A DNA stretch of 64,000 nucleotides from Actinomycetota bacterium (lineage in GTDB: Bacteria; Actinomycetota; Actinomycetes; S36-B12; UBA5976). Position 1 is the stretch's first letter; the number at the start of each line of letters is the position of its first letter. The notes beneath the pieces were generated by a model. It saw only the letters and a program-made list of their open reading frames with translations. It did not search any database and had not been told where the DNA came from. Position numbers and translations under genes: made by a program. Below are positions 7,862 to 57,878 of this stretch, one piece after another. The DNA lies in contig CANGDT010000002.1 in assembly GCA_947452755.1 (NCBI GenBank), forward strand, positions 27,909 to 91,908. Direction: 5' to 3'.

Positions 7862-8794
7862 ATGGATACCCGTAATCGTTACGTGCTACCGCCAGTAGTG
7901 GAGCAATCAAGCCCTGCGTTCACAAATCCAGGTCACTCGTCAATCGAAGTGGCGTGCGACTGGGTCAACGTTGGCGAGTATCGCGACATTACTCTCCAGT
8001 TCTCTGCGGGCGAAGATTCAGGCATTGCAAAGATCACTATCAATCGACCGGAGAAGCGCAATGCGTTTCGCCCGCAAACAGTAAAAGAACTCATCGAGGC
8101 ACTTGATATCGCCCGCGATGACCCTTCAATTGGTGTGGTTATTTTGACGGGCCAAGGCGACTGGGCATTCTGTAGTGGTGGCGATCAAATGATTCGTGGC
8201 GATGACGGGTACATCGGTGATGACGAAGTCGCGCAAGCGGGCGTAGGTCGCTTAAACGTTCTTGACTTACAGATTGCGATTCGTCGGATTCCAAAGCCAG
8301 TCGTAGCGATGGTTGCTGGTTATGCCATTGGTGGCGGACACGTGCTACACGTCGTATGCGATTTAACTATTGCTGCTGACAATGCACGCTTTGGTCAGAC
8401 CGGTCCGAAGGTTGGTTCGTTTGATGGCGGCTACGGTTCAGGCTTGCTTGCTCGCCAAATTGGTCAAAAGCGTGCGCGTGAAATTTGGTATTTGTGTCGT
8501 CAGTATGGCGCCGAGCAGGCTTACGACTGGGGTTTGGTTAACGAAGTTGTGCCGCTGGTAGATCTTGAAAAGGAAACTGTGCGGTGGGCACGCGAGATGT
8601 TGCAGTTGTCACCGATTGCACTTCGAATGTTGAAGGCGAGCCACAATGCTGCAGATGACGGTCTCGCAGGAATTCAACAGCTTGCTGGCGATGCCACGCT
8701 GTTGTTCTACATGAGCGAAGAAGGTCAAGAAGGTCGTAACGCTTACAAGGAAAAGCGTCGCCCTGATTTTGGTCAATTCCCGAAGCGTCCATAA
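7862..8794 (+). CDS. menB: 1,4-dihydroxy-2-naphthoyl-CoA synthase
   Basis: It has a crotonase fold with FCSGGDQ and [11 protein letters not shown] motifs and is full length (310 aa). It is divergent from menE. Confidence 0.95.
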
Positions 8795-8806
8795 CAAAGT
8801 CGCTCA

Positions 8807-9856
8807 GTGTCTATCGAATCTTTCGCCCGCAGTGCGCGCATGTTTGCGTTGCATTTAACGACTGAATTTCGTGGCACAACAATTCGTTCCGGCTTGCTCG
8901 TCGAAGGTCCGAGCGGTTGGGGAGAGTTCGCGCCATTTCCTGAGTACGACGATGTCATGGCGGGTCGATGGTTGGCAGGTGCGCTGGAATCGGCTTGCGG
9001 TTCATGGCCCTTGGCCGTGCGGTCGGAGATTCCTGTGAATGCGATCATTCCCGTCTTGCCTGAGGGACCCACGCGGCGTGCGGTTCATTCAGCGGCAACT
9101 TTGATGGGTGTGACGACATTTAAAGTGAAGGTTGCAAACACTCCCGATTCACTAGATGAGGATGTGTTACGCCTACGCACCATTCGCGACATGCTCACTG
9201 AACTAAATGTGCCTGGCGAAATACGTATCGATGCGAATGCACGCTGGTCAGTTTCAGAAGCAGCAGCGAACATCGCCATCCTGAATGATGCTGTTGGCGC
9301 ATTGGACTATGTGGAACAACCGTGTGCAACTCTGGATGAATTGCGTGAACTAAAAGGCTTGATGTCCGCTTGGGACTATCCCGTGCGTATCGCGGTTGAC
9401 GAGAGTATTCGGTTAAGCGATTCGCTTGATGTCAACGTGATTCAACAAATTGCGGATGTGGCAATCATCAAAGCCATTCCCGTCGGCGGTGTTAATCGTG
9501 CGTTGGACATTGTTGAACAAATTGGTTTGCCTGTCGTTGTCAGTGGAAGTTTAGATACCTCTGTTGGTTTATCAAGCGGACTTGCTTTGGCCGCAGCAAT
9601 CCCGAATCTTTATGGTGCGTGCGGACTAGGTACTGGCGCCTTGTTTGCTGAAGATGTCGTCGGCGAAACAACGATGCCGCTTGGAGGCATGATTTCTGTT
9701 GGTCGCACGGCTCCGGATCTCGATGTGCTCGATCAAGTTGAAGCTGGCATTGCTCGGACGTATCGCGCGGAATGGCAAGAGCGCATGATTCGGGCATGGA
9801 ATGCTGGTGCAAGAGAATTAGTTTCGGATGAAGTGCGTGAGGTGGTGGAGCAATGA
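8807..9856 (+). CDS. menC: o-succinylbenzoate synthase (enolase superfamily)
   Basis: It shows enolase-superfamily metal and base motifs (KVKV, IRIDANARW, YVEQP, VDES). It lies between menB and menD. Confidence 0.8.
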   Translation: MSIESFARSARMFALHLTTEFRGTTIRSGLLVEGPSGWGEFAPFPEYDDVMAGRWLAGALESACGSWPLAVRSEIPVNAIIPVLPEGPTRRAVHSAATLMGVTTFKVKVANTPDSLDEDVLRLRTIRDMLTELNVPGEIRIDANARWSVSEAAANIAILNDAVGALDYVEQPCATLDELRELKGLMSAWDYPVRIAVDESIRLSDSLDVNVIQQIADVAIIKAIPVGGVNRALDIVEQIGLPVVVSGSLDTSVGLSSGLALAAAIPNLYGACGLGTGALFAEDVVGETTMPLGGMISVGRTAPDLDVLDQVEAGIARTYRAEWQERMIRAWNAGARELVSDEVREVVEQ

Positions 9857-19147: not shown

Positions 19148-20330
19148 CTTGCTCAATCTGCAAGATCCACAACAGGTCATTAATCCTTACGGAATTTATA
19201 CATCGCTACGTGCAAGCGGTGAACTTTTGTGGAGTGAACGTTACGACATGTGGCTAGCGCCGACGCACGCTACCGCGAATGCCACACTTCGTGCCAAATC
19301 ACTCGGTCGAATTTTTTCACCAGTACTTCCAGAATCTGAGTGGGAGATTTTTAACTGGCTCCATTCAGATTCAATTTTGGATAGCGAACCACCAAAGCAC
19401 ACGCGCCTTCGTGCCCTTGTGCAAAAAGCATTTACACCTGGCCGCATTGAAGCGCTGCGTCCCAACATTGTTCAAACCTGTGTTGAACTCCTCGATCGTG
19501 CTGAAGTAAAGCGAAACGAACAAGGGCACTTCGATGTCTTGGCTGACTATGCTGAACCGCTTCCCGTATTGATCATTGCTGACTTGCTCGGCGTTCCGCG
19601 TGACATGGCTGAAGACCTTCGACGCTGGTCGCAGGACATTGTCAAAATGTACGAATTTGATCGGACTCGAGAGCAAGAGCTCGCAGCTCAAGAATCCGGC
19701 AAGGCGTTCAGTGAATATGTTTCTGCAATTGCACGTGAACGAAAGAAAAATCCACAATCAGATTTGATTACTGCATTAGTGGAAGTTGAAGAGCTAGGTG
19801 AGAAGCTCAACGAACACGAGCTGATTGCCATGTGTGTCTTGCTGTTAAATGCTGGGCACGAAGCAAGCGTGAACGGTTTTGGTAATGGAATGGTTGCGCT
19901 CTTCAACAATCCTGATCAGCTTGGACTGTTAGCTGCGCATCCACATGAACTCGCGCCGACGGCTCTTGAAGAAATGTTGCGTTATGACTCGCCGTTGCAT
20001 CTTTTTGAACGCACTGCCACGGCAGATACTCAGATTGGTGAGATAACTGTGCAGGTTGGGCAGAAAGTTGGCGCTTTGCTGGGTTCGGCAAATCGCGATG
20101 GCACTGTTTTTGCTGAGCCAGATACTTTCGACATCACGCGTGCGCAGAATCCGCATATTGCTTTTGGTGCGGGTATTCATTTTTGTATTGGTGCTCCGCT
20201 TGCTCGCCTTGAGATGTTGACGTCGCTGCCAATGTTGTTTGAGCGTTTTCCGGATTTGCAGTTAGCGGGGGAGCCGGTTCAGCGTCCGACTTTTGTACTG
20301 CGTGGCTGGGAGTCGATTCCAGCGAGCTAA
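19134..20330 (+). CDS. cytochrome P450
   Basis: It carries the heme-thiolate loop FGAGIHFCIGAPLAR, the ExxR motif (EMLRYDSP) and the I-helix LLLNAGHEAS. Confidence 0.9.
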   Translation: MSTANLLNLQDPQQVINPYGIYTSLRASGELLWSERYDMWLAPTHATANATLRAKSLGRIFSPVLPESEWEIFNWLHSDSILDSEPPKHTRLRALVQKAFTPGRIEALRPNIVQTCVELLDRAEVKRNEQGHFDVLADYAEPLPVLIIADLLGVPRDMAEDLRRWSQDIVKMYEFDRTREQELAAQESGKAFSEYVSAIARERKKNPQSDLITALVEVEELGEKLNEHELIAMCVLLLNAGHEASVNGFGNGMVALFNNPDQLGLLAAHPHELAPTALEEMLRYDSPLHLFERTATADTQIGEITVQVGQKVGALLGSANRDGTVFAEPDTFDITRAQNPHIAFGAGIHFCIGAPLARLEMLTSLPMLFERFPDLQLAGEPVQRPTFVLRGWESIPAS

Positions 20331-20379
20331 GTGGGTACTGCGTGGCTGGGAGTCGATTCCAGCGAGCTAAGTGGGTACT
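20295..20379. repeat. perfect 40-bp tandem duplication (2 copies plus a 5-nt third start) covering the P450 stop codon
   Basis: Bases 20295-20334 and 20335-20374 are identical (gtactgcgtggctgggagtcgattccagcgagctaagtgg). They are followed by gtact again. Confidence 0.95.
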
Positions 20380-21685
20380 AGTTTTCTAGTGCGTTGTGCA
20401 TTGCGGCGAATTTGGATTGTGATTCAGCCACTTCGGATTCGCTTGTTGAGCCGGAAACAATTCCGCACCCTGCGTATAGGCGAAGTTGTGTGCGGTGTGT
20501 GTCTTCAATTTGTGCGCAACGTAAGGCGATACCAAACTCACCGTTGCTGTTTCGATCAATCCATCCGACTGGTGCCGAGTAGCGTCCTCGGTCCATGTGT
20601 TCGAGTTCGCGGATCATGAGTGCTGCACGTTCTGTTGGTGTGCCGCATACGGCAGCGGTTGGATGAAGTGATGCGGCAAGTGCGAGTGCGGATGCGCCGT
20701 CTACGAGTTCACCTGAAATGTCAGTGGCGAGGTGTTGAACGTTTGCAAGCTGAAGAATGAATGGTTCTTCTGGCACGTTCAGGTCTGTGCAGTGTGACGC
20801 GAGGGCAGAGGCGACTGAGGCCACAGCATAGGCATGTTCTTCTTGATCTTTGTCAGATCCCATGAGTGCTTGTGCTAGTTGGTCGTCGCGATGCGAGTCG
20901 CTACTGCGGCGAACTGTTCCGGCGAGAACTCGGCTGGTGACTTGGTCTTGATCTTTTCTGATGAGAAGTTCAGGTGTGGCACCTATGAGTCCATCAACAC
21001 TGAAGGTCCAGCATTCGGGGAACGCGTTGTTGAGTTTGCGCAAAAGTGCACCGAGGTTTAGTGGCTGATCAAGTTTTGCCACGATGTCGCGAGCCAGTAC
21101 GACTTTGTCGAGCTCGCCGGCGTTGATTCGCTCGACTGCCGTGTCAACTGCATGCGCCCAATCTTCGACGGGACGTGAACCTTCTGCCCAAGTAACTGAA
21201 TGGTGTGCTGTTTCGATTACTCGCGGTTTTGCGAGTTCCGATTCAGCTTGCGCGATGTCGTCGTCGATTGTGTGTGCGTCGGCAGTCACTGTGAGCGTGG
21301 TGCCGTGCTCTGTTCTGCGAACGACAAATTTTGGTATGACAACGACTGAACTGCCTGAGCTTGATGAAAATGCGAATGATGCAAAGGCGATGGGTTCATC
21401 GCCAAATGCGGTCGAGCACCATTTGGTCCACCAACGTTGTGCTCGGCTAAATCGTTCGGGGCCATCTACTTCGACTCGATCTACTTCGCCCCATGCGACA
21501 ATTCCGTGTTGGTCATCGGCTGGACCGCGTACCCAAGCCAGGGCGTCATCTGCGCCAATCAAACTCAAGAGGTGCGGTTGGTCTGCGATGTGAGCTGTGC
21601 GTACACGAATGCCTTCGTGCGGATGAATAAATGCGGTGCTCACAATCTTTAAGCCTAGACCGCCAAGTTGTTTGCGGCATCTCAC
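20378..21685 (-). CDS. menF: isochorismate synthase
   Basis: It has chorismate-binding motifs (GRYSAPVGWID, GIALRCA, AGCGIV). The start is uncertain (GTG 21685 or GTG 21643). Confidence 0.85.
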   Translation of the reverse strand: MRCRKQLGGLGLKIVSTAFIHPHEGIRVRTAHIADQPHLLSLIGADDALAWVRGPADDQHGIVAWGEVDRVEVDGPERFSRAQRWWTKWCSTAFGDEPIAFASFAFSSSSGSSVVVIPKFVVRRTEHGTTLTVTADAHTIDDDIAQAESELAKPRVIETAHHSVTWAEGSRPVEDWAHAVDTAVERINAGELDKVVLARDIVAKLDQPLNLGALLRKLNNAFPECWTFSVDGLIGATPELLIRKDQDQVTSRVLAGTVRRSSDSHRDDQLAQALMGSDKDQEEHAYAVASVASALASHCTDLNVPEEPFILQLANVQHLATDISGELVDGASALALAASLHPTAAVCGTPTERAALMIRELEHMDRGRYSAPVGWIDRNSNGEFGIALRCAQIEDTHRTQLRLYAGCGIVSGSTSESEVAESQSKFAAMHNALEN

Positions 21686-21719
21686 GATGGAGATTCCGCT
21701 GTCGGCTTAGACTTCGATT

Positions 21720-23120
21720 GTGGCTCAAGTCTCTGATGTTTCCTTAACCAAAGGATTTTGGCACCGAGTGGCCGGGCCCTACGCATTTTCCTGGCAGTGG
21801 ATTGTTTTGATGTTCGCGCTGTCTGTGCCTCTGACAGCTTCGATTTATGGTCCATTTGGTTCCTATGAATACAACCGGACTTTCTTCGTGTCGTCGATCG
21901 CGCAAGTGATTAGTTTGATTCCAATCGTGTTGTTTGGTCGCATGGTTGTCGCGATAGAGCGTTTTCCTTTGCGTCTTTCGATGGTGTTGGTGCTCTTTGT
22001 AGTTGTGAACATTATTCGGTCAATAGCAAACGGCGCTCTATTTAGTTTGTGGAACATTGATGCAACGCACTACGTAGGCCGCATTTTTTCTAACGTTAGT
22101 TTTGGTGCTCCTTTGATGATCACGCTGGCGTGGATGATGGATCGTCATTACGAAAATAGACACAATGTTCGCGCATTGCGTGAGGCCTGCCAAGCAGCGA
22201 ACATGCGTATTTCAAGTTTGAGCGAGTCACTTTCGGAAACTTTTTCGTATTGGAAACGTGAACTCCATCTTGAAACTACAGAGTCTCGAGCCGCTCTTAT
22301 GCGTATTGCGGATCAACATGCAAGCGAACCAGATCGTGCGCAAATAATTGTTGAGCTTGACGATCAACTCGCAAAGGCAGAAGACGCTTCGCGACTCTAT
22401 TGGACAAATGGTTCAGGTTTAGCTGAAGACAAATCTCGGTTACCGCGGAAGTCCTCATTTCGAGATGTACTAGACGGTGCAACGATTTATCGACCTGTGG
22501 CACCGGGTATTACAGCCTTTGCGCTCTTCGCAGTTCTTGCCGCTTGGCATTCATTTGTGATTTCACGCAAAGAAGCCCTTGTAGTGTCCTCGGTTATTGG
22601 TGCAATGACATTCGTGCTTTTAAGTAGTTATCGAAAGTTTGTCTTGCCAGGAATGAAGAAGGCATCGAACGTCACACGATGGTTGATTTTTGAAAGTTTT
22701 GCGATTGCACTAACCGTGCTGGTAGTAGTAATGCTCACAATTGGTACAGGTCCAACTGGTCGCGCACTTCTTGATCCGCATATGCAGGCGTACTTAGTCT
22801 TACTGGTTTTAAATTGCGTGGCTATTTACGGTGGATTTATGAGTGGCTCAATGTTGTACATTCAGCGACTCGAATTTTATAAATCCGAACGTCAACAAAT
22901 TGTGCGTGATTTAGAAAATGAACTTGAATTGCAAAATTCGTTATCGAAGTTACTTTTCACGACCGCGATCGGACATACGCCTACCGCAGGCACGATTCGC
23001 ATTCAAGAGGCAATTGCCACACACGACGATGCACTTATTAATCGCGCACTACGTGAGTCACTTGAGATCTGGACTGAAGCCGTTGCCAAGCTTTCTCGTC
23101 GCGCAGCGATATCGGACTAA
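21720..23120 (+). CDS. polytopic membrane protein, unknown function (two blocks of about 4 TM helices, each followed by a helical soluble segment)
   Basis: The 466-aa ORF has hydrophobic stretches at roughly aa 23-140 and 262-382. I recognised no family motif. Codon usage looks AT-richer than the neighbours. Confidence 0.6.
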   Translation: MAQVSDVSLTKGFWHRVAGPYAFSWQWIVLMFALSVPLTASIYGPFGSYEYNRTFFVSSIAQVISLIPIVLFGRMVVAIERFPLRLSMVLVLFVVVNIIRSIANGALFSLWNIDATHYVGRIFSNVSFGAPLMITLAWMMDRHYENRHNVRALREACQAANMRISSLSESLSETFSYWKRELHLETTESRAALMRIADQHASEPDRAQIIVELDDQLAKAEDASRLYWTNGSGLAEDKSRLPRKSSFRDVLDGATIYRPVAPGITAFALFAVLAAWHSFVISRKEALVVSSVIGAMTFVLLSSYRKFVLPGMKKASNVTRWLIFESFAIALTVLVVVMLTIGTGPTGRALLDPHMQAYLVLLVLNCVAIYGGFMSGSMLYIQRLEFYKSERQQIVRDLENELELQNSLSKLLFTTAIGHTPTAGTIRIQEAIATHDDALINRALRESLEIWTEAVAKLSRRAAISD

Positions 23121-23245
23121 TTCACATTTCCGTCTGGACTGCTCCACGGAGTCGAATCGATAATGAACTCGGATTGCTAAACGTGCCGGGTTACTAAGGG
23201 ACAGGTATCTCCTGCAACATCCTTGACACATGGCAGACTAGGAAC

Positions 23246-23935
23246 ATGTCGAGCGCAGATCTGAACAAAGAGCCCCACGAAGTGGCAGCAATGTTTGATG
23301 GCGTTGCCGAAAAATACGACATCACGAACGACGTTCTTTCCTTTGGCCGCACTCGCGCTTGGCGCAAAGCGGTAGTGGCGGCCGTTGACCCACAGCCGGG
23401 TGAAAAAATTCTTGATTTGGCTGCGGGTACTGGGACAAGTACGCAACCATTCTTTGAAGCTGGGGCGGAAGCGATAGCTTGCGATTTCAGTTTGGGAATG
23501 CTCGAAGTGGGCAAGCGGCGTTATCCGCACCTGACATTTGTGGCCGGCGATGGGATGAACCTGCCTTTTGCTGATAATTCCTTTGATGCAGTGACTATTT
23601 CCTTCGGTTTGCGCAATATTCACGACACTTTGCGTGGTTTGCAGGAGCTTTACCGAGTCACTAAGCCCGGTGGTCGCCTGGTCGTGTGCGAGTTCAGCCA
23701 TCCAACGGTCAGCGCGTTCCGCAAGGTGTACATGGAATATTTGATGAAGGCCTTGCCTGGTGTAGCCAAAAAGGTCTCCAGCAACCCAGACGCATACGTC
23801 TATTTGGCCGAATCTATCCGGGCGTGGCCAAATCAACTGGAATTGGCCGAATTAATTGGCGCCGCTGGCTGGGAATTGTGCAAGTGGCGCGATCTCACAG
23901 GCGGAATTGTCGCTTTGCATCACGCGGTTAAGTAG
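23246..23935 (+). CDS. menG: demethylmenaquinone methyltransferase
   Basis: It is UbiE/MenG family, with the SAM motif [10 protein letters not shown] and the conserved [12 protein letters not shown]. Confidence 0.9.
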
Positions 23936-41364: not shown

Positions 41365-42297
41365 ATGACATCAGCTTCCGTACGTGAGCCCCGCACTGAA
41401 GTTGCCAAGGGCACAATCTACGGATTCTCTGCGTATCTCATTTGGGGCATCGTTCCCATCTACTGGCCCAAGCTACAGCCGGCTCGACCACTTGAAATTT
41501 TGAGCCATCGCATCATCTGGAGTTTAGTTTTCCTGATTGGTGTCATTGTCATACAGAAGAAATCAGATCGAGTTATTTCAATCCTGCGGAACCGACGACA
41601 AATAGGTTTGCTAGCACTTGCTTCCGTGTTGATTGCTGTGAACTGGGGACTGTTTATCTGGTGCAGCGTCAATGGGCATCTACTCGATTCCTCATTGGGA
41701 TACTTCATCACGCCACTTGTCAGTGTCGGCTTTGGTGTTGTGTTCTTTAAAGAAAAATTACGCACCATCCAGTGGGTGGCACTGTCCATTGCTGCGGGTG
41801 CGGTCGTGTACCTGACCATTGCAATGGCCAAAGCGCCGACTGTCGCCATTGCACTTGCATTCACATTTGGAATTTATGGATACGTGAAGAAGCTCGCCAA
41901 TGTGGATGCAATTGAAAGCCTGACAGTGGAGACTCTGTTACTAGCCCCAGTGGCACTCGGATATTTGGCTTGGCTAGCTTCAAAGGGCGAGAACACATTT
42001 TTTGCTCATGGTGTGACTCATTCAATGTGGTTGGCAAGCGCTGGGGTGGTAACGGCAATTCCGCTTTTGATGTTTGGCGCTGCTGCAATTCGTGTCCCAT
42101 TGTCGACGCTGGGTATGTTGCAGTACTTGGGTCCAACGCTTCAATACTTTATTGGGCTCTACATGTTCAACGAAATCATGTCGCCGGCACGCTTTCACGG
42201 ATTCGTAATTACGTGGGTCGCGCTTATTATCTTGTCGATTGATGGGTGGCGCCATCGATCAAGTGTGACAAAAGACTTCGTTCCAGATATGGACTAA
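41365..42297 (+). CDS. rarD: EamA/RarD-family permease
   Basis: It is a 10-TM DMT-superfamily protein whose N-terminus (GTIYGFSAYLIWGIVPIYW) is typical of RarD. Confidence 0.8.
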   Translation: MTSASVREPRTEVAKGTIYGFSAYLIWGIVPIYWPKLQPARPLEILSHRIIWSLVFLIGVIVIQKKSDRVISILRNRRQIGLLALASVLIAVNWGLFIWCSVNGHLLDSSLGYFITPLVSVGFGVVFFKEKLRTIQWVALSIAAGAVVYLTIAMAKAPTVAIALAFTFGIYGYVKKLANVDAIESLTVETLLLAPVALGYLAWLASKGENTFFAHGVTHSMWLASAGVVTAIPLLMFGAAAIRVPLSTLGMLQYLGPTLQYFIGLYMFNEIMSPARFHGFVITWVALIILSIDGWRHRSSVTKDFVPDMD

Positions 42298-43355
42298 CTA
42301 ACTTGCCAGGTGTCCTTGCCTGTGAGCAGTGTCTGTAAGTCGCCGGCACCCTTTGCGGTTGCTGTTTCTATTTGATTGCGCACTAGGCGGTCATACGAAG
42401 GTCGCTTGATATCTCGGAAAATACCAATGGGTGTGTCCTGCAAAGTCTCCGGATGCGACAGGCGGGACAACGCAAATGCAAATGCTGGATCTTCTGCATG
42501 CGCATCGTGGGTGACAATGTCTTCAGCTGCTACGTCATTCACGCTGGCAACACGAAGCGTTCCATTGTGGTCACGCACAACACAGCGATCGCTGTTTGCG
42601 CCAAAAACAATCTTTTCGCCGTGAACCAAACGCATCGTGACATCATCGCGAGTGTCGGCGTCCTTCATTGGATCCCACGCACCATCGTTGAATATATTGC
42701 AGTTTTGGTAAATCTCAATCAACGCGGTGCCTTCGTGTTCAGCAGCAGCGCGAAGCACAGACTGCAGATGTTGACGATCGCTATCGACTGAACGGGCTAC
42801 GAAAGTGGCTTCAGCGCCAAGGGCGACAGAAACGGGATTGAATGGGTAATCCAATGAACCAAGCGGTGTGGTCTTGGTGATTTTGCCCATTTCCGAAGTC
42901 GGGGAGTATTGACCCTTTGTCAGACCATAGATGCGGTTGTTGAACATCAAAATCTTCAGGTTCACGTTTCGGCGTAGCGCGTGAATCAAATGGTTACCAC
43001 CGATAGACAGCGCGTCACCATCACCAGTAACTACCCAAACTGACAAGTCTGGACGCGAAACTGAAAGACCAGTCGCAATCGCAGGTGCGCGACCGTGTAT
43101 CGAGTGAACGCCGTAGGTGTTCATGTAGTACGGGAAGCGACTTGAGCAGCCAATGCCTGAAACGAAAACGATGTTTTCTTTCTTCACGCCTAGTTCAGGC
43201 ATGAATCCCTGGACGGCGGCAAGAATTGCGTAGTCACCGCAACCGGGGCACCAACGAACTTCTTGATCGGTTTTGTAATCCTTCGCGGACTGCTTTTCGT
43301 CGGACTTGGGTACGAGGTCAAGCGAGGCAAATGTGTTAGACACCTTCAACCACAT
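42294..43355 (-). CDS. korB: 2-oxoglutarate:ferredoxin (2-oxoacid:acceptor) oxidoreductase beta subunit
   Basis: It has the ThDP-binding beta-subunit motifs WCPGCGDYAIL and GDGDALSIGGNH. It overlaps the korA stop. Confidence 0.9.
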   Translation of the reverse strand: MWLKVSNTFASLDLVPKSDEKQSAKDYKTDQEVRWCPGCGDYAILAAVQGFMPELGVKKENIVFVSGIGCSSRFPYYMNTYGVHSIHGRAPAIATGLSVSRPDLSVWVVTGDGDALSIGGNHLIHALRRNVNLKILMFNNRIYGLTKGQYSPTSEMGKITKTTPLGSLDYPFNPVSVALGAEATFVARSVDSDRQHLQSVLRAAAEHEGTALIEIYQNCNIFNDGAWDPMKDADTRDDVTMRLVHGEKIVFGANSDRCVVRDHNGTLRVASVNDVAAEDIVTHDAHAEDPAFAFALSRLSHPETLQDTPIGIFRDIKRPSYDRLVRNQIETATAKGAGDLQTLLTGKDTWQVS

Positions 43356-45219
43356 CCTTAATTGCGTCCATTAGTTCTTGGGTTTTGAAAGGTAATCCGC
43401 GCACTTGGTTGTAGCCAATGGCATCGACGAGGTACTTCGCACGAAGCATCATCGATAGTTGGCCAAGGTTCATTTCAGGAACGATGACTTTCTCGTACTT
43501 TTTCAATTCCTCGCCAGTGTTTGCCGGGAACGGATTCAAGTGACGCAAATGAGCGTGTGCCACATCGAACCCCTCGAGACGAAGTCGGCGGCAAGCTGAT
43601 TCAACAGGACCATATGTAGAGCCCCAGCCAATGACGAGGACCTTTGCTTTACCGCTTGGGTCTTCAACTTTGAGTGGCTCGATGGTCTTGGCGATTCCAT
43701 CAATCTTTGCTTGACGAATGCGCACCATAAAATCGTGATTGGCCGGGTCGTATGAAATGTTGCCGGTGCCATCTTGTTTTTCAATGCCACCGATGCGATG
43801 TTCTAGACCAGCAACACCTGGTATTGCCCAAGGGCGAGCCAAAGTCTCTGGATCGCGCTTAAACGGCCAGAACACTTCGGTGCCATCGGGCATGGTGTGG
43901 TTCGGGCCGTCGGCAAATTTCACATGCAGATCGGGCAAAGCACTCACGTCGGGGACATGCCATGGTTCAGAACCATTTGCCAAGTATCCATCGGAGAGAA
44001 GGAACACTGGTGTGCGATAAACCGTCGCGATGCGTACTGCTTCAATTGCTGCATCAAAGCAGTCAGCAGGAGACTGTGGCGCAACGATTGGCACGGGTGC
44101 TTCACCGTTGCGTCCATACATTGCCTGCAGGAGGTCTGCTTGCTCGGTCTTTGTTGGCAAGCCTGTTGACGGTCCACCACGCTGAACATCAACGATGACA
44201 AGTGGTAATTCGAGAGCAACTGCCAGACCGATTGCTTCACTCTTGAGTGCAACACCTGGTCCAGAAGTTGTAGTGACACCAAGCATGCCCGCGTAGCTTG
44301 CACCAAGCGCAGCACCAATGCCAGCAATTTCATCTTCAGCCTGGAATGTACGCACACCAAAGTTTTTGTGCTTGCTCAGTTCATGCAAGATATCGGAAGC
44401 CGGGGTGATTGGGTATGAGCCAAGGAAGATTGGAAGATCAGCGCGCACAGATGCGGCAATAAGACCGTATGACAGAGCGAGGTTGCCGCTGATGTTGCGG
44501 TACGTTCCGGCGGCCATTGGAGCAGGCTTGACCGCAAATTGATTTGGAAAACTTTCAGTTGTTTCGCCAAAGCTCCAACCAGCCTGCAGCGCAGCAATAT
44601 TGGCAGCCAAAATTTCAGGCTTCTTGCCGAACTTTGCATTTAAGAAAGCAATAGTCGGTTCAATTGGTCGAGTAAACATCCACAACAGCACACCAAGTGC
44701 AAACATGTTCTTGGATCGTTCAGCATCTTTCTTGGTGATATCAAAATCTTTAAGTGCTTCAACAGTCATAGAAGTCAGCGCGATGGGGTGAACGTTGTAT
44801 CCATCGAGGCTGCCATCCTCGAGCGGGTTAGACGCGTAACCGACTTTGGTCATTGCGCGTTCGGAAAACTCATCCGTATTCACGATTAAGTCGCCACCGG
44901 GACGAAGTTCCTTCAAATTTGATTTCAAGGCTGCAGGGTTCATGGCTACAAGTACGTGAGCCTGATCGCCTGGAGTCATGATGTCGTGATCGCCGAAGTG
45001 CAGTTGGAACGCACTGACACCAGGCATAGTTCCGGCTGGTGCGCGGATCTCGGCGGGGAAGTCTGGAAGTGTGGTGAGGTCGTTTCCAAAGGCTGCAGTG
45101 GTTGAAGTGAACTGGTCACCAGTGAGCTGCATGCCGTCGCCGGAGTCGCCTGCAAAACGGATACTTACCTGGTCTAGTTCAACTATTTCTTTAGTCACGT
45201 GACCGCGCGTCCTTTGCAT
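43336..45219 (-). CDS. korA: 2-oxoglutarate:ferredoxin (2-oxoacid:acceptor) oxidoreductase alpha subunit
   Basis: The N-terminus IRFAGDSGDGMQLTGDQFT and the 627-aa alpha/gamma fusion are typical of actinobacterial KorA. Confidence 0.9.
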   Translation of the reverse strand: MQRTRGHVTKEIVELDQVSIRFAGDSGDGMQLTGDQFTSTTAAFGNDLTTLPDFPAEIRAPAGTMPGVSAFQLHFGDHDIMTPGDQAHVLVAMNPAALKSNLKELRPGGDLIVNTDEFSERAMTKVGYASNPLEDGSLDGYNVHPIALTSMTVEALKDFDITKKDAERSKNMFALGVLLWMFTRPIEPTIAFLNAKFGKKPEILAANIAALQAGWSFGETTESFPNQFAVKPAPMAAGTYRNISGNLALSYGLIAASVRADLPIFLGSYPITPASDILHELSKHKNFGVRTFQAEDEIAGIGAALGASYAGMLGVTTTSGPGVALKSEAIGLAVALELPLVIVDVQRGGPSTGLPTKTEQADLLQAMYGRNGEAPVPIVAPQSPADCFDAAIEAVRIATVYRTPVFLLSDGYLANGSEPWHVPDVSALPDLHVKFADGPNHTMPDGTEVFWPFKRDPETLARPWAIPGVAGLEHRIGGIEKQDGTGNISYDPANHDFMVRIRQAKIDGIAKTIEPLKVEDPSGKAKVLVIGWGSTYGPVESACRRLRLEGFDVAHAHLRHLNPFPANTGEELKKYEKVIVPEMNLGQLSMMLRAKYLVDAIGYNQVRGLPFKTQELMDAIKDVVEGV

Positions 45220-45320
45220 CGATTTTCCGTGTTCATTTTCGCACTGTTTGACTCCGAATGAGTGGTCGGGTGGGGTTTATCTCGTATAGCGGAATGTGAT
45301 GTGTGCCCTAGAGTCGTGCT

Positions 45321-45746
45321 GTGAGCGAATTGGGTCAATCAGCAGTGCCGGTAACGGTCATTGAGGCTGGCCTGGCCTGTTGTGGTGTCGAGGCTGGTTC
45401 CGTCGATTTTGTGACCAACCCCTTGATTAACCCCTCCCTAGAAATGCCGTGGATAAAGGTAGAAGCATCGGGTGACACACACATTCTGGTGATTGCCGGA
45501 ACCGTAACGCATGCACTAGCCCCCAGTGTGAAAGCCGCATTCGACGCATTGGCCGAGCCGCGGGTTGTGATTGCGTTTGGCGCATGTGCCATCACGGGTG
45601 GTCCGTATTGGGATTCGTATTCAGTTGTCCCTGGTGCCGACCACGTGGTGCCGGTGGATATTCATGTACCCGGGTGTCCACCGAGCCCGCAGGAATTAGG
45701 GACCGCAATATATGCCGCAGCGCAACGCGTAGAGGCAGCCCGATGA
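45321..45746 (+). CDS. NuoB-family (complex I 20-kDa / hydrogenase small-subunit-like) paralogue
   Basis: The 141-aa protein aligns by eye to the canonical NuoB in this window. All four N2-cluster Cys are retained (GLACCGVE, GACAITGG, VPGCPP). Confidence 0.8.
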   Translation: MSELGQSAVPVTVIEAGLACCGVEAGSVDFVTNPLINPSLEMPWIKVEASGDTHILVIAGTVTHALAPSVKAAFDALAEPRVVIAFGACAITGGPYWDSYSVVPGADHVVPVDIHVPGCPPSPQELGTAIYAAAQRVEAAR

Positions 45747-46228
45747 TTTTTTCAACGGAATTAATCGCAAGTGAATTGCGCGACGGTTCGCACTGGATTG
45801 TGGTGTCGAACGACAATTGGGTAGCCGTTCATCGAGAACTCGCTTCACTGTATCCACGTTTTGAGTGGCTCACCGCTGTTCACCACGAGGATGACAACTT
45901 CGCCATCACCACAATGGTGTCGACTGCGGACTTATCTGAGTCCGTCGTCACTTCAGCCAGAGTTGCGGGTGAATGTGCATCGCTCGTTGAAATATTTGCA
46001 CAGTCAGATTTCTACGAACGTGAAGTCATTCAAATGTTCGGCGTCACGATTGGCGATGGTGATCGCAGGAAAGCTTTCGACGTTGAATTCCCTGGACACC
46101 CCTTACGTAGAGATTTTGCCTTGACGCCTCGCCAGGAAACGCAATGGCCAGGTGCGGTCGAACCTGACGCCAACGCACGACGCCGACCATCACTTGCCCC
46201 TGGTGTGTTTGCAGAGTGGAAGTCATGA
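45743..46228 (+). CDS. NuoC-family (complex I 30-kDa) paralogue, short form
   Basis: The ATG at 45743 forms an ATGA overlap with the NuoB-like stop and has AGAGG 7 nt upstream. The motif DFYEREVIQMFG...FPGHPLRRDF parallels the canonical [12 protein letters not shown]...[10 protein letters not shown]. Confidence 0.75.
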   Translation: MIFSTELIASELRDGSHWIVVSNDNWVAVHRELASLYPRFEWLTAVHHEDDNFAITTMVSTADLSESVVTSARVAGECASLVEIFAQSDFYEREVIQMFGVTIGDGDRRKAFDVEFPGHPLRRDFALTPRQETQWPGAVEPDANARRRPSLAPGVFAEWKS

Positions 46229-49309: not shown

Positions 49310-49381
49310 GCCCCCTTGGCACAGTGGTAGCGCACTTCCTTGGTAAGGAAGAGGTCGTCAGTCCGATTCTGACAGGGGGCT
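49310..49381 (+). tRNA. tRNA-Thr (GGT)
   Basis: Hand folding gives acceptor gccccct/agggggc, anticodon stem cttcc/ggaag with loop ttGGTaa, and T-arm gtcag-tccgatt-ctgac. No CCA is encoded. Confidence 0.85.
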
Positions 49382-49412: not shown

Positions 49413-49486
49413 GCCGGGGTAGCTCAGCTTGGTAGAGCAAGCGGCTCATAATCGCTGTGTCGCCGGTTCAAGTCCGGCCCTCGGTA
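49413..49486 (+). tRNA. tRNA-Met (CAT), elongator type
   Basis: Hand folding gives D-arm tagctcagcttggtagagc, anticodon loop ctCATaa and T-arm gccgg-ttcaagt-ccggc. The acceptor gccgggg/cctcggt needs two G-U pairs. It lacks the initiator-specific 3 G-C pairs in the anticodon stem. Confidence 0.8.
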
Positions 49487-54107: not shown

Positions 54108-54134
54108 TTAGCACCCGCCACCTGCGAGTGCTAA
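54108..54134. promoter_or_regulatory. CIRCE element (HrcA operator) upstream of groES
   Basis: TTAGCACCC-N9-GAGTGCTAA has one mismatch to the CIRCE consensus. It lies 64 nt upstream of the groES GTG. Confidence 0.85.
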
Positions 54135-56369: not shown

Positions 56370-56378
56370 TTGATGACA

Positions 56379-56420
56379 TGAAGAAGCCCCCGAGATTTCT
56401 CTTGGGGGCTTCTTCATTTT
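56379..56420 (+). terminator. rho-independent terminator of groEL
   Basis: A 17-bp stem (tgaagaagcccccgaga / tcttgggggcttcttca, one G-U pair) with a 4-nt loop is followed by TTTT. Confidence 0.85.
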
Positions 56421-56433
56421 GTGAAGTTGCGAT

Positions 56434-56742
56434 TTAGCTAATTTGCTTCTTCTTTGAATCTTGGCGTGCGTAGTACGCTTCGCGATCGTCTTCGCTCATG
56501 CCGCCCCATACGCCGTATGGCTCGCGGGCTTTGAGTGCTGCTTCGCGGCACTGCATGATGACTGGGCACGTTGCGCAAATTGACTTTGCAATTTGGACGC
56601 GACGTTCGCGGGCTTGGCCACGTTCGCCGTCTGGGTGGTAGAACAAGTCTGAATCCAAGCCACGGCAAGCGCTGTCGAGCTGCCAGTCCCAGAAGTCTGC
56701 ATTAGGTCCGGGTAGTCGTGAAAGATCGGCCATGATGTCCAT
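56434..56742 (-). CDS. whiB3: WhiB-family Fe-S transcriptional regulator (WhiB3/WhiD-like)
   Basis: It has LPGPNADFWDWQL, four Cys (C...CATCPVIMQC) and GVWGG. Its position after groEL matches the Mycobacterium whiB3 locus. An alternative ATG start lies at 56733. Confidence 0.85.
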   Translation of the reverse strand: MDIMADLSRLPGPNADFWDWQLDSACRGLDSDLFYHPDGERGQARERRVQIAKSICATCPVIMQCREAALKAREPYGVWGGMSEDDREAYYARQDSKKKQIS

Positions 56743-56779
56743 CCATTTTGGCTCCGTTGTGGCGCCTTGTTCTCACTAT

Positions 56780-56824
56780 AAAACTTGTTCATTACTTGGT
56801 CAAGTGATTTGATGAACAAGTTTT
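56780..56824. promoter_or_regulatory. 13-bp perfect inverted repeat (candidate operator) in the whiB3 / MerR-like divergent intergenic region
   Basis: The arms aaaacttgttcat and atgaacaagtttt are separated by 19 nt. An inner palindrome, acttg-gt-caagt, lies in the spacer. Confidence 0.4.
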
Positions 56825-56930
56825 GCCCTAAAAATTCCCTTATGGAATATGGTCCACAGGGCAAACCCATTGATTTAGGCGATATATCCCTCGACATGCG
56901 CAATATGGAACTTTCCATGAGACTTAAGTC

Positions 56931-57878
56931 ATGTCGCAGAGCCAGGGTCAGCCAGAGGTGAGTCTCACCATCTCTGCAGTTTCCCGTCGTTTGGGTATCC
57001 CAGCGGACACTTTGCGCACGTGGGGACGCCGATATGGCCTTGGCCCATCGGAGCATCAAACTGGTTCTCACCGTCGCTACACACTTATTGACGTAGCTCG
57101 ACTGGATTACATGAGCCGATTATTGGCCAATGGAATTGCTCCGGTTGATGCCGCACGCCTTGCCATTGCCGAAGATGTTGAAGCTGCCACCTTGCTGCCT
57201 TTGGCCCGTGCCTCACTCAAAGTTGTGGCTGATCTCGATGATGAAAACGTCATCTCGCTAACCGGGCCTCGGGCAAGTATTCGAGGGCTCTTGCGTGCAG
57301 CGAACATGATGGATTCGGCGAAGTGTTCGGCGATCATCGCCAACTTACTGAAGACAGACGGTGTTGTTGCGGCGTGGACAGATGTGTTGTGTCCAGTGCT
57401 TGCCCAACTTGGCGACCAGTGGGCAAAGACTGGCGAAGGTGTGGAAGTAGAACACCTCATATCTGAAGTGGTCGCTAATGAACTGCACAAGATTGTTGAT
57501 GCGCGACCTGATTCTCTGAACGCACGACCTGTTCTGCTAGCAAGCGCACCTCACGAACTTCATACGCTGCCGCTGTACGCCATTGCGGCTGGCCTGGCTG
57601 AACAAAACATTAGTTCGCAGGTTATGGGTGCTCGATTCCCGGCCGATGCACTTGCTGCGGCATGTAAAAAGATTGGTCCAAGTGCCATTGTGATTTGGTC
57701 ACAGACCCAAGGAACAGCCGATAACGCAATCTGGGACGACATTGAAGGTCAACGACCAGAGCCGCTGCGCATGAGTGCCGGGCCTGGATGGAAAGAACCG
57801 CTCCCAGAAGGCGTCGTTCCCACCACCGATTTGCCATCAACCCTACTAACTCTTGCGGTTGCTGCGGGTGTCCGCTAG
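56931..57878 (+). CDS. MerR-family regulator with a C-terminal B12-binding-like domain (LitR/CarH-like)
   Basis: The N-terminal MerR HTH is LTISAVSRRLGIPADTLRTWGRRYG. W-AKTGEGVEV-EH fits Wx9EH. ELHTLP, 36 aa later, fits ExHxx(G) with Pro at the Gly position. Confidence 0.65.
   Translation: MSQSQGQPEVSLTISAVSRRLGIPADTLRTWGRRYGLGPSEHQTGSHRRYTLIDVARLDYMSRLLANGIAPVDAARLAIAEDVEAATLLPLARASLKVVADLDDENVISLTGPRASIRGLLRAANMMDSAKCSAIIANLLKTDGVVAAWTDVLCPVLAQLGDQWAKTGEGVEVEHLISEVVANELHKIVDARPDSLNARPVLLASAPHELHTLPLYAIAAGLAEQNISSQVMGARFPADALAAACKKIGPSAIVIWSQTQGTADNAIWDDIEGQRPEPLRMSAGPGWKEPLPEGVVPTTDLPSTLLTLAVAAGVR

Follow-up and report, generated by a model that had tools for sequence, protein, structure and literature searches.

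The locus described here raises the question whether a vitamin B12-dependent light sensor controls a gene of the WhiB family of redox regulators. It lies in a stretch of 64,000 nucleotides (64 kb, GC content about 52%) from contig CANGDT010000002.1 of the Actinomycetota assembly GCA_947452755.1, which as a whole is called the window. In the window the gene of a MerR-type regulator stands divergent from a whiB3-type gene. A sequence-only reading of this DNA had taken the regulator for a CarH/LitR-type photoreceptor and had proposed a link to the neighbouring whiB gene and possibly to the groE and guaB genes around it. Judged by its sequence, the regulator is a member of the CarH/LitR family, i.e. 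of a known kind, and forms a distinct order-wide clade. By analogy with CarH we consider it fairly probable that it is a photoreceptor-repressor, which would be B12-bound and repress whiB3 in the dark and would be released by light.

Domain architecture and ligand motifs of the regulator

The open reading frame (ORF) of the regulator starts with ATG, and its N-terminal MSQ is common to the homologues. The MerR helix-turn-helix (HTH) expected at the N-terminus was recovered with Pfam (coordinates and supporting evidence of all features are given in Table 1). Its recognition helix reads RTWGRRY, where the family has RTWDRRY. Thus, in LRTWGRRYG of the regulator and in LRTWDRRYG of the family the Glu of the RxWERRY motif, a recognition-helix feature of CarH (PMC9304148), is replaced by Gly and Asp, respectively. 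The wing has the sequence GPSEHQTGSHRRY.

Two cobalamin-binding parts follow behind a variable linker, and the sequence-only reading had named Pfam matches to both of them as a check. For the helical part the match stood: B12-binding_2 (PF02607) scored 28.1 bits with a gathering threshold (GA) of 23 at residues 118-181. For the Rossmann part it did not, as B12-binding (PF02310) reached 20.5 bits with a GA of 32.1 at residues 201-257, although this model is on record for many members of the family. The NCBIfam CarH model NF052513 (TransRegCarH, an equivalog model) matched residues 12-256 with an E-value of 1.2e-22 and 80.5 bits. Because this score lies below the curated cut-off of 400 bits, the regulator is homologous to CarH but by NCBI's rule not an equivalog.

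An AlphaFold2 model calculated with 24 homologues (predicted local distance difference test, pLDDT, 83) begins with a winged helix, which a disordered linker connects to four helices and a Rossmann module of five strands. The top 50 matches of this model in a Foldseek search of the PDB were all either CarH of Thermus thermophilus (TtCarH; PDB 5C8D/5C8E/5C8F) or CtMerR of Chloracidobacterium thermophilum (PDB 8JBS/8JBT). The best full-length match was TtCarH 5c8d (E 5e-15), and the cobalamin domain of the model fits that of TtCarH with a target-normalised template-modelling (TM) score of about 0.8 and a root-mean-square deviation of 2.8 Å. A sequence search of the PDB likewise ranked TtCarH first, with an E-value of 7e-18 for the regulator alone and of 3e-22 for the family profile. 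The two proteins have the same three-part architecture and predicted fold, and the Wx9EH motif, the axial His and the RxW-RRY motif of the recognition helix are common to both. They differ in that the identity is only about 24% and in that the regulator has Ala165 for His132, Pro214 for Gly180, His208 for Gly174 and GPG for GG.

The residues that in CarH contact the cofactor were examined individually. The Wx9EH motif is an exact one, with W164 (nt 57420-57422), the nine residues AKTGEGVEV and E174-H175 (nt 57450-57455). When aligned with the PDB sequences by phmmer, W164, E174 and H175 pair with W131, E141 and H142 of TtCarH, which cap the adenosyl group, and the counterpart of the axial ligand H177 is H211, as the sequence-only reading had supposed. 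H211 is part of the lower-ligand motif E209-L-H211-T-L-P214 (nt 57555-57572) and lies 36 residues behind H175. The sequence-only reading had given 35 residues for Thermus CarH, which agrees with the alignment, as this has one gap in the stretch. Nor is the Pro at position 214 a deviation, because the published CarH motif, D/ExHx2G/P-x41-SxT/V-x22-27-GG with the His as lower axial ligand, allows either Gly or Pro (PMC9304148). The corresponding sequence of the regulator is ELHTLP-x42-SQT-x24-GPG (S257-Q-T259 and G284-P-G286), in which the first spacer is one residue longer and GPG stands for GG.

With SignatureFinder a second signature consisting of GxxW, EH, GxxH and GxxxP has been proposed for light-responsive cobalamin domains (PMC11796333). 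Three of these elements are complete in the regulator (G161xxW164, E174H175 and G233xxxP237); of GxxH the His is present and the Gly position is taken by His208. Across 145 representatives with 35-50% identity this position is occupied by E, D or G. In the same 145 sequences E174 is found in 141, H175 in 142, H211 in 141 and P214 in 129, and W164 is kept in 117, the remainder having mostly another aromatic residue or His. None of 120 closer homologues (46-100% identity) deviates at W164, E174, H175 or H211, and only two lack P214.

Profile matches, ligand alignment and predicted fold, with TtCarH as the best PDB match, hence bear out the family assignment of the sequence-only reading. The class I LitR proteins of Streptomyces and Bacillus, which are adenosyl-B12 (AdoB12)-dependent regulators of light-induced carotenogenesis, share the family definition of a MerR HTH and two B12-binding domains. 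Class II LitR proteins (Pseudomonas type) retain the four-helix bundle and have no functional Rossmann B12-binding domain, whereas for the regulator a Rossmann module with five strands is predicted and the motif of the axial His is present.

Adjacency to whiB3 and the candidate operator

An exhaustive homologue search returned 360 clusters (50% identity) at E-values below 1e-30. Nearly all named homologues, those of high-GC relatives included, came from 'Candidatus Nanopelagicales' or from metagenome-assembled genomes of unclassified Actinomycetes/Actinomycetota. Protein searches including the high-GC relatives, together with cluster look-ups, gave no cultured or named host outside Nanopelagicales apart from one partial match labelled Candidatus Angelobacter. 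Many of the homologues carry the JGI pipeline label 'light-induced transcriptional regulator'.

The 86 loci in which gene order was compared came from metagenomes (80 loci), from genomes (2 loci) and from the window's own contigs. In the window the whiB3/regulator pair is flanked by groES and groEL on its upstream side and by guaB and a guaB3-like gene on its downstream side. This order, groES-groEL-whiB(-)-regulator(+)-guaB-guaB3, was kept almost without exception down to an identity of 40%. The divergent neighbour is of the WhiB3 type, as had been claimed: in a phmmer search of the PDB it was closest to WhiB3 of Mycobacterium tuberculosis (8cwr, E 4e-35), followed by WhiB1 (8e-14), WhiB7 (2e-8) and WhiB4 (3e-7). 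The adjacency of regulator and whiB3 throughout Nanopelagicales suggests that light may control whiB3.

The intergenic region contains a perfect 13-nt inverted repeat, which the sequence-only reading had already pointed out as a possible binding site. Its left arm is situated inside the spacer between the -35 and -10 boxes of the predicted whiB3 promoter, a good one of the sigma-70 type, and its right arm just upstream of the -35 box. Each arm contains TGAACA and thereby TnnACA, the core of the repeats in CarH operators. In the CarH operators that have been characterised, direct repeats of 11 bp (nnnnTnnACAn) stand in tandem and overlap the -35 or the -10 box (PMC9304148). Both arms fit this consensus; the older consensus of the TtCarH repeats, nAnnTnnACAn, was fitted by eye and rejected, since the arms fail at its A position. 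Like the TtCarH operator the candidate operator covers the -35 box and holds TnnACA cores, but in place of three tandem 11-bp direct repeats it has two inverted arms whose centres are 32 bp apart. The operator of CarA, the B12-independent paralogue of CarH in Myxococcus xanthus, measures about 55 bp, has inverted-repeat character and embeds the -35 box (PMC9304148).

For comparison 76 distinct related intergenic regions were aligned on the TTGA of the whiB3 -35 box, which is therefore invariant by construction. The promoter as a whole is highly conserved (cTTGACCAAC-yTaTGAmgCGrTT-n-TAnnnT), the flanking AAC, the spacer and the TAnnnT of the -10 box being kept and the spacer length ranging from 16 to 18 nt in the relatives. 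A degenerate element, TGAANNNNTT, was found at position +12 in 40 of the 76 loci and with a looser pattern in 62. Its reverse complement, AANNNNTTCA, occurs at position -20 in 30 of them, and a weaker copy at -31 stands in 11-bp phase with the copy at -20. When the composite pattern AA-N4-TTCA-N19-25-TGAA-N4-TT was searched in 718 kb (related loci and window), all 24 occurrences were situated at whiB promoters, and shuffled sequences gave 0-1. In the window only the two arms themselves match the palindrome exactly; the two sites that differ from it at two positions (14713 and 21065) are no more than chance would give. Within single loci the spacer element and the upstream DNA formed a significant palindrome in no more than about 9 out of 75 cases, so that the perfect palindrome is specific to the lineage of the window and the degenerate repeat is general. 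By gene order and by this conserved promoter feature the proposed link to the whiB gene was thus strengthened.

Two things hardly vary across the family, the DNA-binding domain of the regulator (LTVAAVARRLGVAPATLRTWDRRYGLGPSxHxxGxHRRY) and the CG core of the spacer element. In 63 of 75 loci a CG core is combined with the canonical residues Asp32 and His42 and in 4 with a variant domain, while a non-CG core together with a canonical domain was never found; all 8 loci with a non-CG core carry D32G or H42R. Fisher's exact test gave 3e-8, a value which is uncorrected for phylogeny, the 8 non-CG loci representing about 3-5 lineages. The lineage of the window (together with locus L007) is a D32G case, in which CG of the spacer element has changed to AA and the element has become a perfect mirror of the upstream arm. 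In the H42R lineages the wing resembles that of TtCarH (R...GGH), and two of these lineages have TGAACA half-sites. This covariation is suggestive of the regulator reading the whiB3 spacer element.

Further observations were made in the intergenic region. The spacer of the whiB3 promoter is more conserved than most of the nearby coding sequence. A second short inverted repeat, TTTGCCCT / AGGGCAAA (56822-56829 and 56858-56865, 28 nt apart), overlaps the end of the main palindrome; it may be due to chance, since no conservation was seen. Upstream of the regulator gene, at about 56890-56930 in the window and in related loci, a conserved (G/A)TGC(G/A) is followed some 20 nt downstream by A(G/C)AAT or ACACT. 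In many relatives this second element precedes the start codon by only 6-8 nt, and this short distance hints at a promoter that lacks a canonical -35 box and gives a leaderless transcript; the version in the window is weaker. Streptomyces LitR acts on crt promoters through the sigma factor LitS of the extracytoplasmic function (ECF) type. Neither a LitS-type partner nor crt genes were seen near the regulator of the window, and the LitS-type promoter GCATCCR-N15-CVGAAD fits neither the region upstream of its gene nor the upstream elements of the relatives.

Light, cobalamin or another target

What was computed here is the architecture, the identity and conservation of the motifs, the resemblance of the fold to TtCarH, the conserved gene order, the placing of the repeat and its specificity, and the covariation. 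Cofactor binding, light sensitivity, oligomerisation, operator occupancy and repression rather than activation are modelled on CarH, and on this model the system would work as follows. In the dark the C-terminal module would bind adenosylcobalamin (AdoCbl), with H211 as lower axial ligand and with W164, E174 and H175 capping the adenosyl group, and the AdoCbl-loaded regulator would oligomerise. Its MerR-type domains would then occupy the inverted repeat of about 45 bp, which is centred on the whiB3 -35 box and covers it, and RNA polymerase would be blocked at the divergent whiB3 promoter. Near-UV to green light would break the Co-C bond and loosen the oligomer, and whiB3 could be transcribed.

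Several findings weigh against such a light-released repressor. The scores for the Rossmann domain and for the CarH equivalog lie below their cut-offs. Directly after the Trp the regulator has Ala165 where TtCarH has His132, the bis-His ligand of the light state, and His208 takes the place of the Gly of GxxH. The arms of the repeat are inverted, and the covariation goes back to few lineages. Among the genes of the 64 kb the Pfam listing showed no carotenoid, rhodopsin/opsin or photolyase genes, an association which is usual and no strict criterion of the family; TtCarH in particular lies among carotenoid genes, whereas the regulator adjoins whiB3. Finally, bacteria of the acI group are mostly B12 auxotrophs with uptake or salvage only (PMC5574706, PMC12817590), so that formation of the holo-regulator would depend on external cobalamin.

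We considered three alternatives. First, the regulator could be a genuine B12 photoreceptor and the repeat at whiB3 the site of another factor or a promoter or UP-like element, in which case the true targets (carotenoid, rhodopsin or photolyase genes or the regulator's own promoter) would lie elsewhere. The much stronger conservation of the spacer element than of the upstream arm is what would be expected of a core promoter feature, and the upstream part, being A-rich with an 11-bp phase, resembles an UP element. In addition, the geometry departs from that of characterised CarH operators, and the pattern scan covered about 0.7 Mb around the locus, not whole genomes. Nevertheless, we regard this alternative as unlikely, since the core of the repeat covaries with residues of the recognition helix and the wing, both arms changed together to a perfect palindrome in the lineage of the window, the divergent adjacency is kept across the 86 loci and the arms hold the TnnACA core of CarH repeats.

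The second alternative concerns the signal. The regulator may bind a corrinoid and sense the supply of B12 or another form of cobalamin rather than light, or it may have lost its need of a cofactor and regulate whiB3 constitutively or under the control of a partner. In B12 auxotrophs, as the acI bacteria largely are, cofactor occupancy would follow the external supply, and His208, Ala165 and the sub-threshold Rossmann score could be read in the same sense. A precedent for the loss of B12 dependence in the same fold is CarA, which like the regulator has a MerR domain and a CarH-like C-terminal domain (PMC9304148). What distinguishes CarA from B12-dependent CarH is the loss of the Trp and of flanking residues of Wx9EH (PMC9304148). 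The regulator, by contrast, keeps the whole motif, and close relatives show no change in its Trp, Glu and His while distant ones mostly have them too, which argues against a cofactor-free regulator.

As to a signal other than light, the comparison with CtMerR, the MerR protein with a cobalamin-binding domain that was found with SignatureFinder, is instructive. The family profile matches it with an E-value of 3.5e-9, and its target-normalised TM score in Foldseek is 0.76. Like the regulator it has no His after the Trp and has a residue other than Gly (Ala) at the G/P position of ExHxxG/P, yet AdoCbl is bound in its crystal structure and it is light-responsive. It differs from the regulator in that it keeps the Gly of GxxH, and it shares only 19% identity and comes from a different phylum. 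Moreover, AdoCbl in a pocket of the CarH type is intrinsically photolabile (PMC11796333, PMC9304148). Taken with the conserved Wx9EH motif, these points make a regulator that responds to cobalamin supply, or to no cofactor at all, improbable in our view.

The third alternative is a canonical MerR-type activator. MerR-activated promoters have overlong spacers of 19-20 nt. Although the N-terminal domain belongs to the MerR family and one arm of the repeat is located between the -35 and -10 boxes, it is very improbable that the regulator binds the promoter spacer, remodels the DNA and turns whiB3 on upon ligand binding, because the whiB3 spacer with its 17 nt (16-18 nt in relatives) is already optimal, which disfavours activation by DNA distortion, the second arm stands outside the spacer, upstream of the -35 box, and the C-terminal module is like that of CarH, in place of the coiled-coil effector domain of a MerR protein.

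Neighbouring genes, other features and biological meaning

Table 1. Features of the window (positions are counted from its first nucleotide)
Feature	Position	Strand	Evidence or remark
CarH/LitR-type MerR regulator gene with cobalamin-binding module, 315 aa	56931..57878	+	ORF list, Pfam, NCBIfam, PDB phmmer, AlphaFold2/Foldseek
MerR-type winged helix-turn-helix, residues 13-74	56967..57152	+	Pfam MerR_1 E 1e-13; aligned to DNA-binding domain of TtCarH
Variable linker, predicted disordered, about residues 85-112	57183..57266	+	AlphaFold2 pLDDT <50 for residues 89-109; length differs among homologues
Four-helix bundle (B12-binding_2) with G161xxW164 and Wx9EH	57267..57500	+	PF02607, residues 118-181; model helices 113-190
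Rossmann-type cobalamin-binding subdomain	57525..57830	+	PF02310 sub-threshold; H211 alignment; five beta strands alternating with helices in model
whiB3-type gene, 102 aa, divergent from regulator; presumed regulated target	56434..56742	-	Pfam Whib E 1e-23; PDB phmmer
Candidate operator, perfect 13-nt inverted repeat AAAACTTGTTCAT-N19-ATGAACAAGTTTT	56780..56824	.	arms 56780-56792 / 56812-56824
Predicted whiB3 promoter: -35 TTGACC (56803..56798), 17-nt spacer, -10 TATAGT (56780..56775)	56775..56803	-	promoter scan, 10/12 matches
Antisense ORF, 191 aa, spanning whiB3 5' end, intergenic region and regulator start	56496-57071	-	almost certainly not a gene
Two CIRCE-like inverted repeats upstream of groES, TTAGCACTC-N9-GAGTGCTAA	54062-54088, 54108-54134	+	3 and 1 mismatches; none expected by chance
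Strong hairpin GAAGAAGCCCCC...GGGGGCTTCTTC between convergent groEL and whiB3 ends	56378-56417		-34.9 kcal/mol, z -6.2; T-run after it on + strand
Two-gene 2-oxoacid:ferredoxin oxidoreductase (POR/TPP), minus strand, and small divergent trio of nuoB-like, nuoC-like and 4Fe-4S ferredoxin genes	42294-46228
Menaquinone-pathway genes: crotonase/MenB-like, enolase-superfamily MenC-like, TPP-dependent MenD-like, isochorismate synthase, UbiE-type methyltransferase	7862-15684, 19134-23935
Two adjacent tRNA genes	49310-49381, 49413-49486	+	only Rfam hits in window

The further suggestion of the sequence-only reading, that the regulator might also be linked to the groE/guaB neighbourhood, gained no support. 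The groES gene has CIRCE-like elements of its own, which would place groESL under heat-shock control of the HrcA type, with no part in it for the regulator gene. A hairpin separates groEL from whiB3 and is probably a terminator shared by the two genes; a simple terminator scan did not report it. The repeat, moreover, is found only at whiB3 in the 718 kb scanned. In one related locus, L058 (1803-5493), groEL-groES is inserted between whiB and the regulator gene, with similar CIRCE-like elements between groES and the regulator gene, and whiB retains the conserved promoter with an upstream TTGTTCA element. We tried this locus as a natural experiment, but since whiB keeps the element while the regulator is still nearby, it does not discriminate between the hypotheses. 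The position of the regulator had also been compared with the Mycobacterium locus, in which we take sigD and the anti-sigma factor gene rsdA to occupy roughly the same place.

In high-GC relatives a protein of 250-336 amino acids with weak TPR hits is encoded between the regulator and guaB (L006 6941-8721, L078 2680-4415, L035 5921-6676 and L083 6088-6828), and some of them insert in addition a response regulator of the NarL/LuxR type (REC and GerE domains) at this place. Locus L071 (about 49% GC) has a 227-aa protein with only a GerE domain instead of the TPR-like insert. The streamlined genome of the window has lost, or never had, the TPR-like and response-regulator genes.

The antisense ORF across the intergenic region was dismissed because it overlaps two well-supported genes and the conserved promoter. 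No cobalamin genes were present among the window genes in the Pfam listing, and an Rfam scan of the window gave no cobalamin riboswitch. The full nuo operon is located at about 24.2-40.2 kb and does not include the nuoB-like/nuoC-like/ferredoxin trio. The menaquinone genes flank a gene for an ECF-type sigma factor (13089-13559) and one for a cytochrome P450 (19134-20330), and in the rest of the window the Pfam listing shows genes such as men, nuo, guaA and those of aldehyde dehydrogenase.

To the sequence-only reading no description of a link between light sensing and a WhiB regulator was known, and none came to light in the literature searched. This literature contained no mention of CarH/LitR together with WhiB or in Nanopelagicales/acI, matches to 'LitR' in papers on Nanopelagicales being probably the word 'litre'; it contained nothing relevant on diel expression of whiB and no description of a light-responsive transcription factor in acI/Nanopelagicales. 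In a paper on photoglobin operons WhiB is among the output domains near B12-linked sensors, which is a different system. What is already known is the family, along with the automatic LitR labels on relatives; new are the order-wide clade and the undescribed whiB3 context.

Bacteria of the acI/Nanopelagicales group dominate lake surface waters, where they are the most abundant freshwater bacterioplankton, and are regarded as photoheterotrophs for their rhodopsins. A sensor of the CarH type at one fixed locus throughout the order would be a concrete candidate for light sensing in these cells, and with whiB3 as first target and a specified DNA site the hypothesis is testable in strains now cultured. 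If the regulator does not act on whiB3, it would be one more annotated LitR homologue. That a Nanopelagicales-wide B12 photoreceptor directly gates whiB3, so that light is wired into the WhiB cascade and its perception depends on cobalamin supplied by the community, we put forward tentatively, as a possibility about which we are rather doubtful. If it is true, CarH/LitR regulons would extend from photoprotective pigment genes to a redox regulator of the WhiB family, and light perception would be tied to the exchange of vitamin B12 in lake communities.

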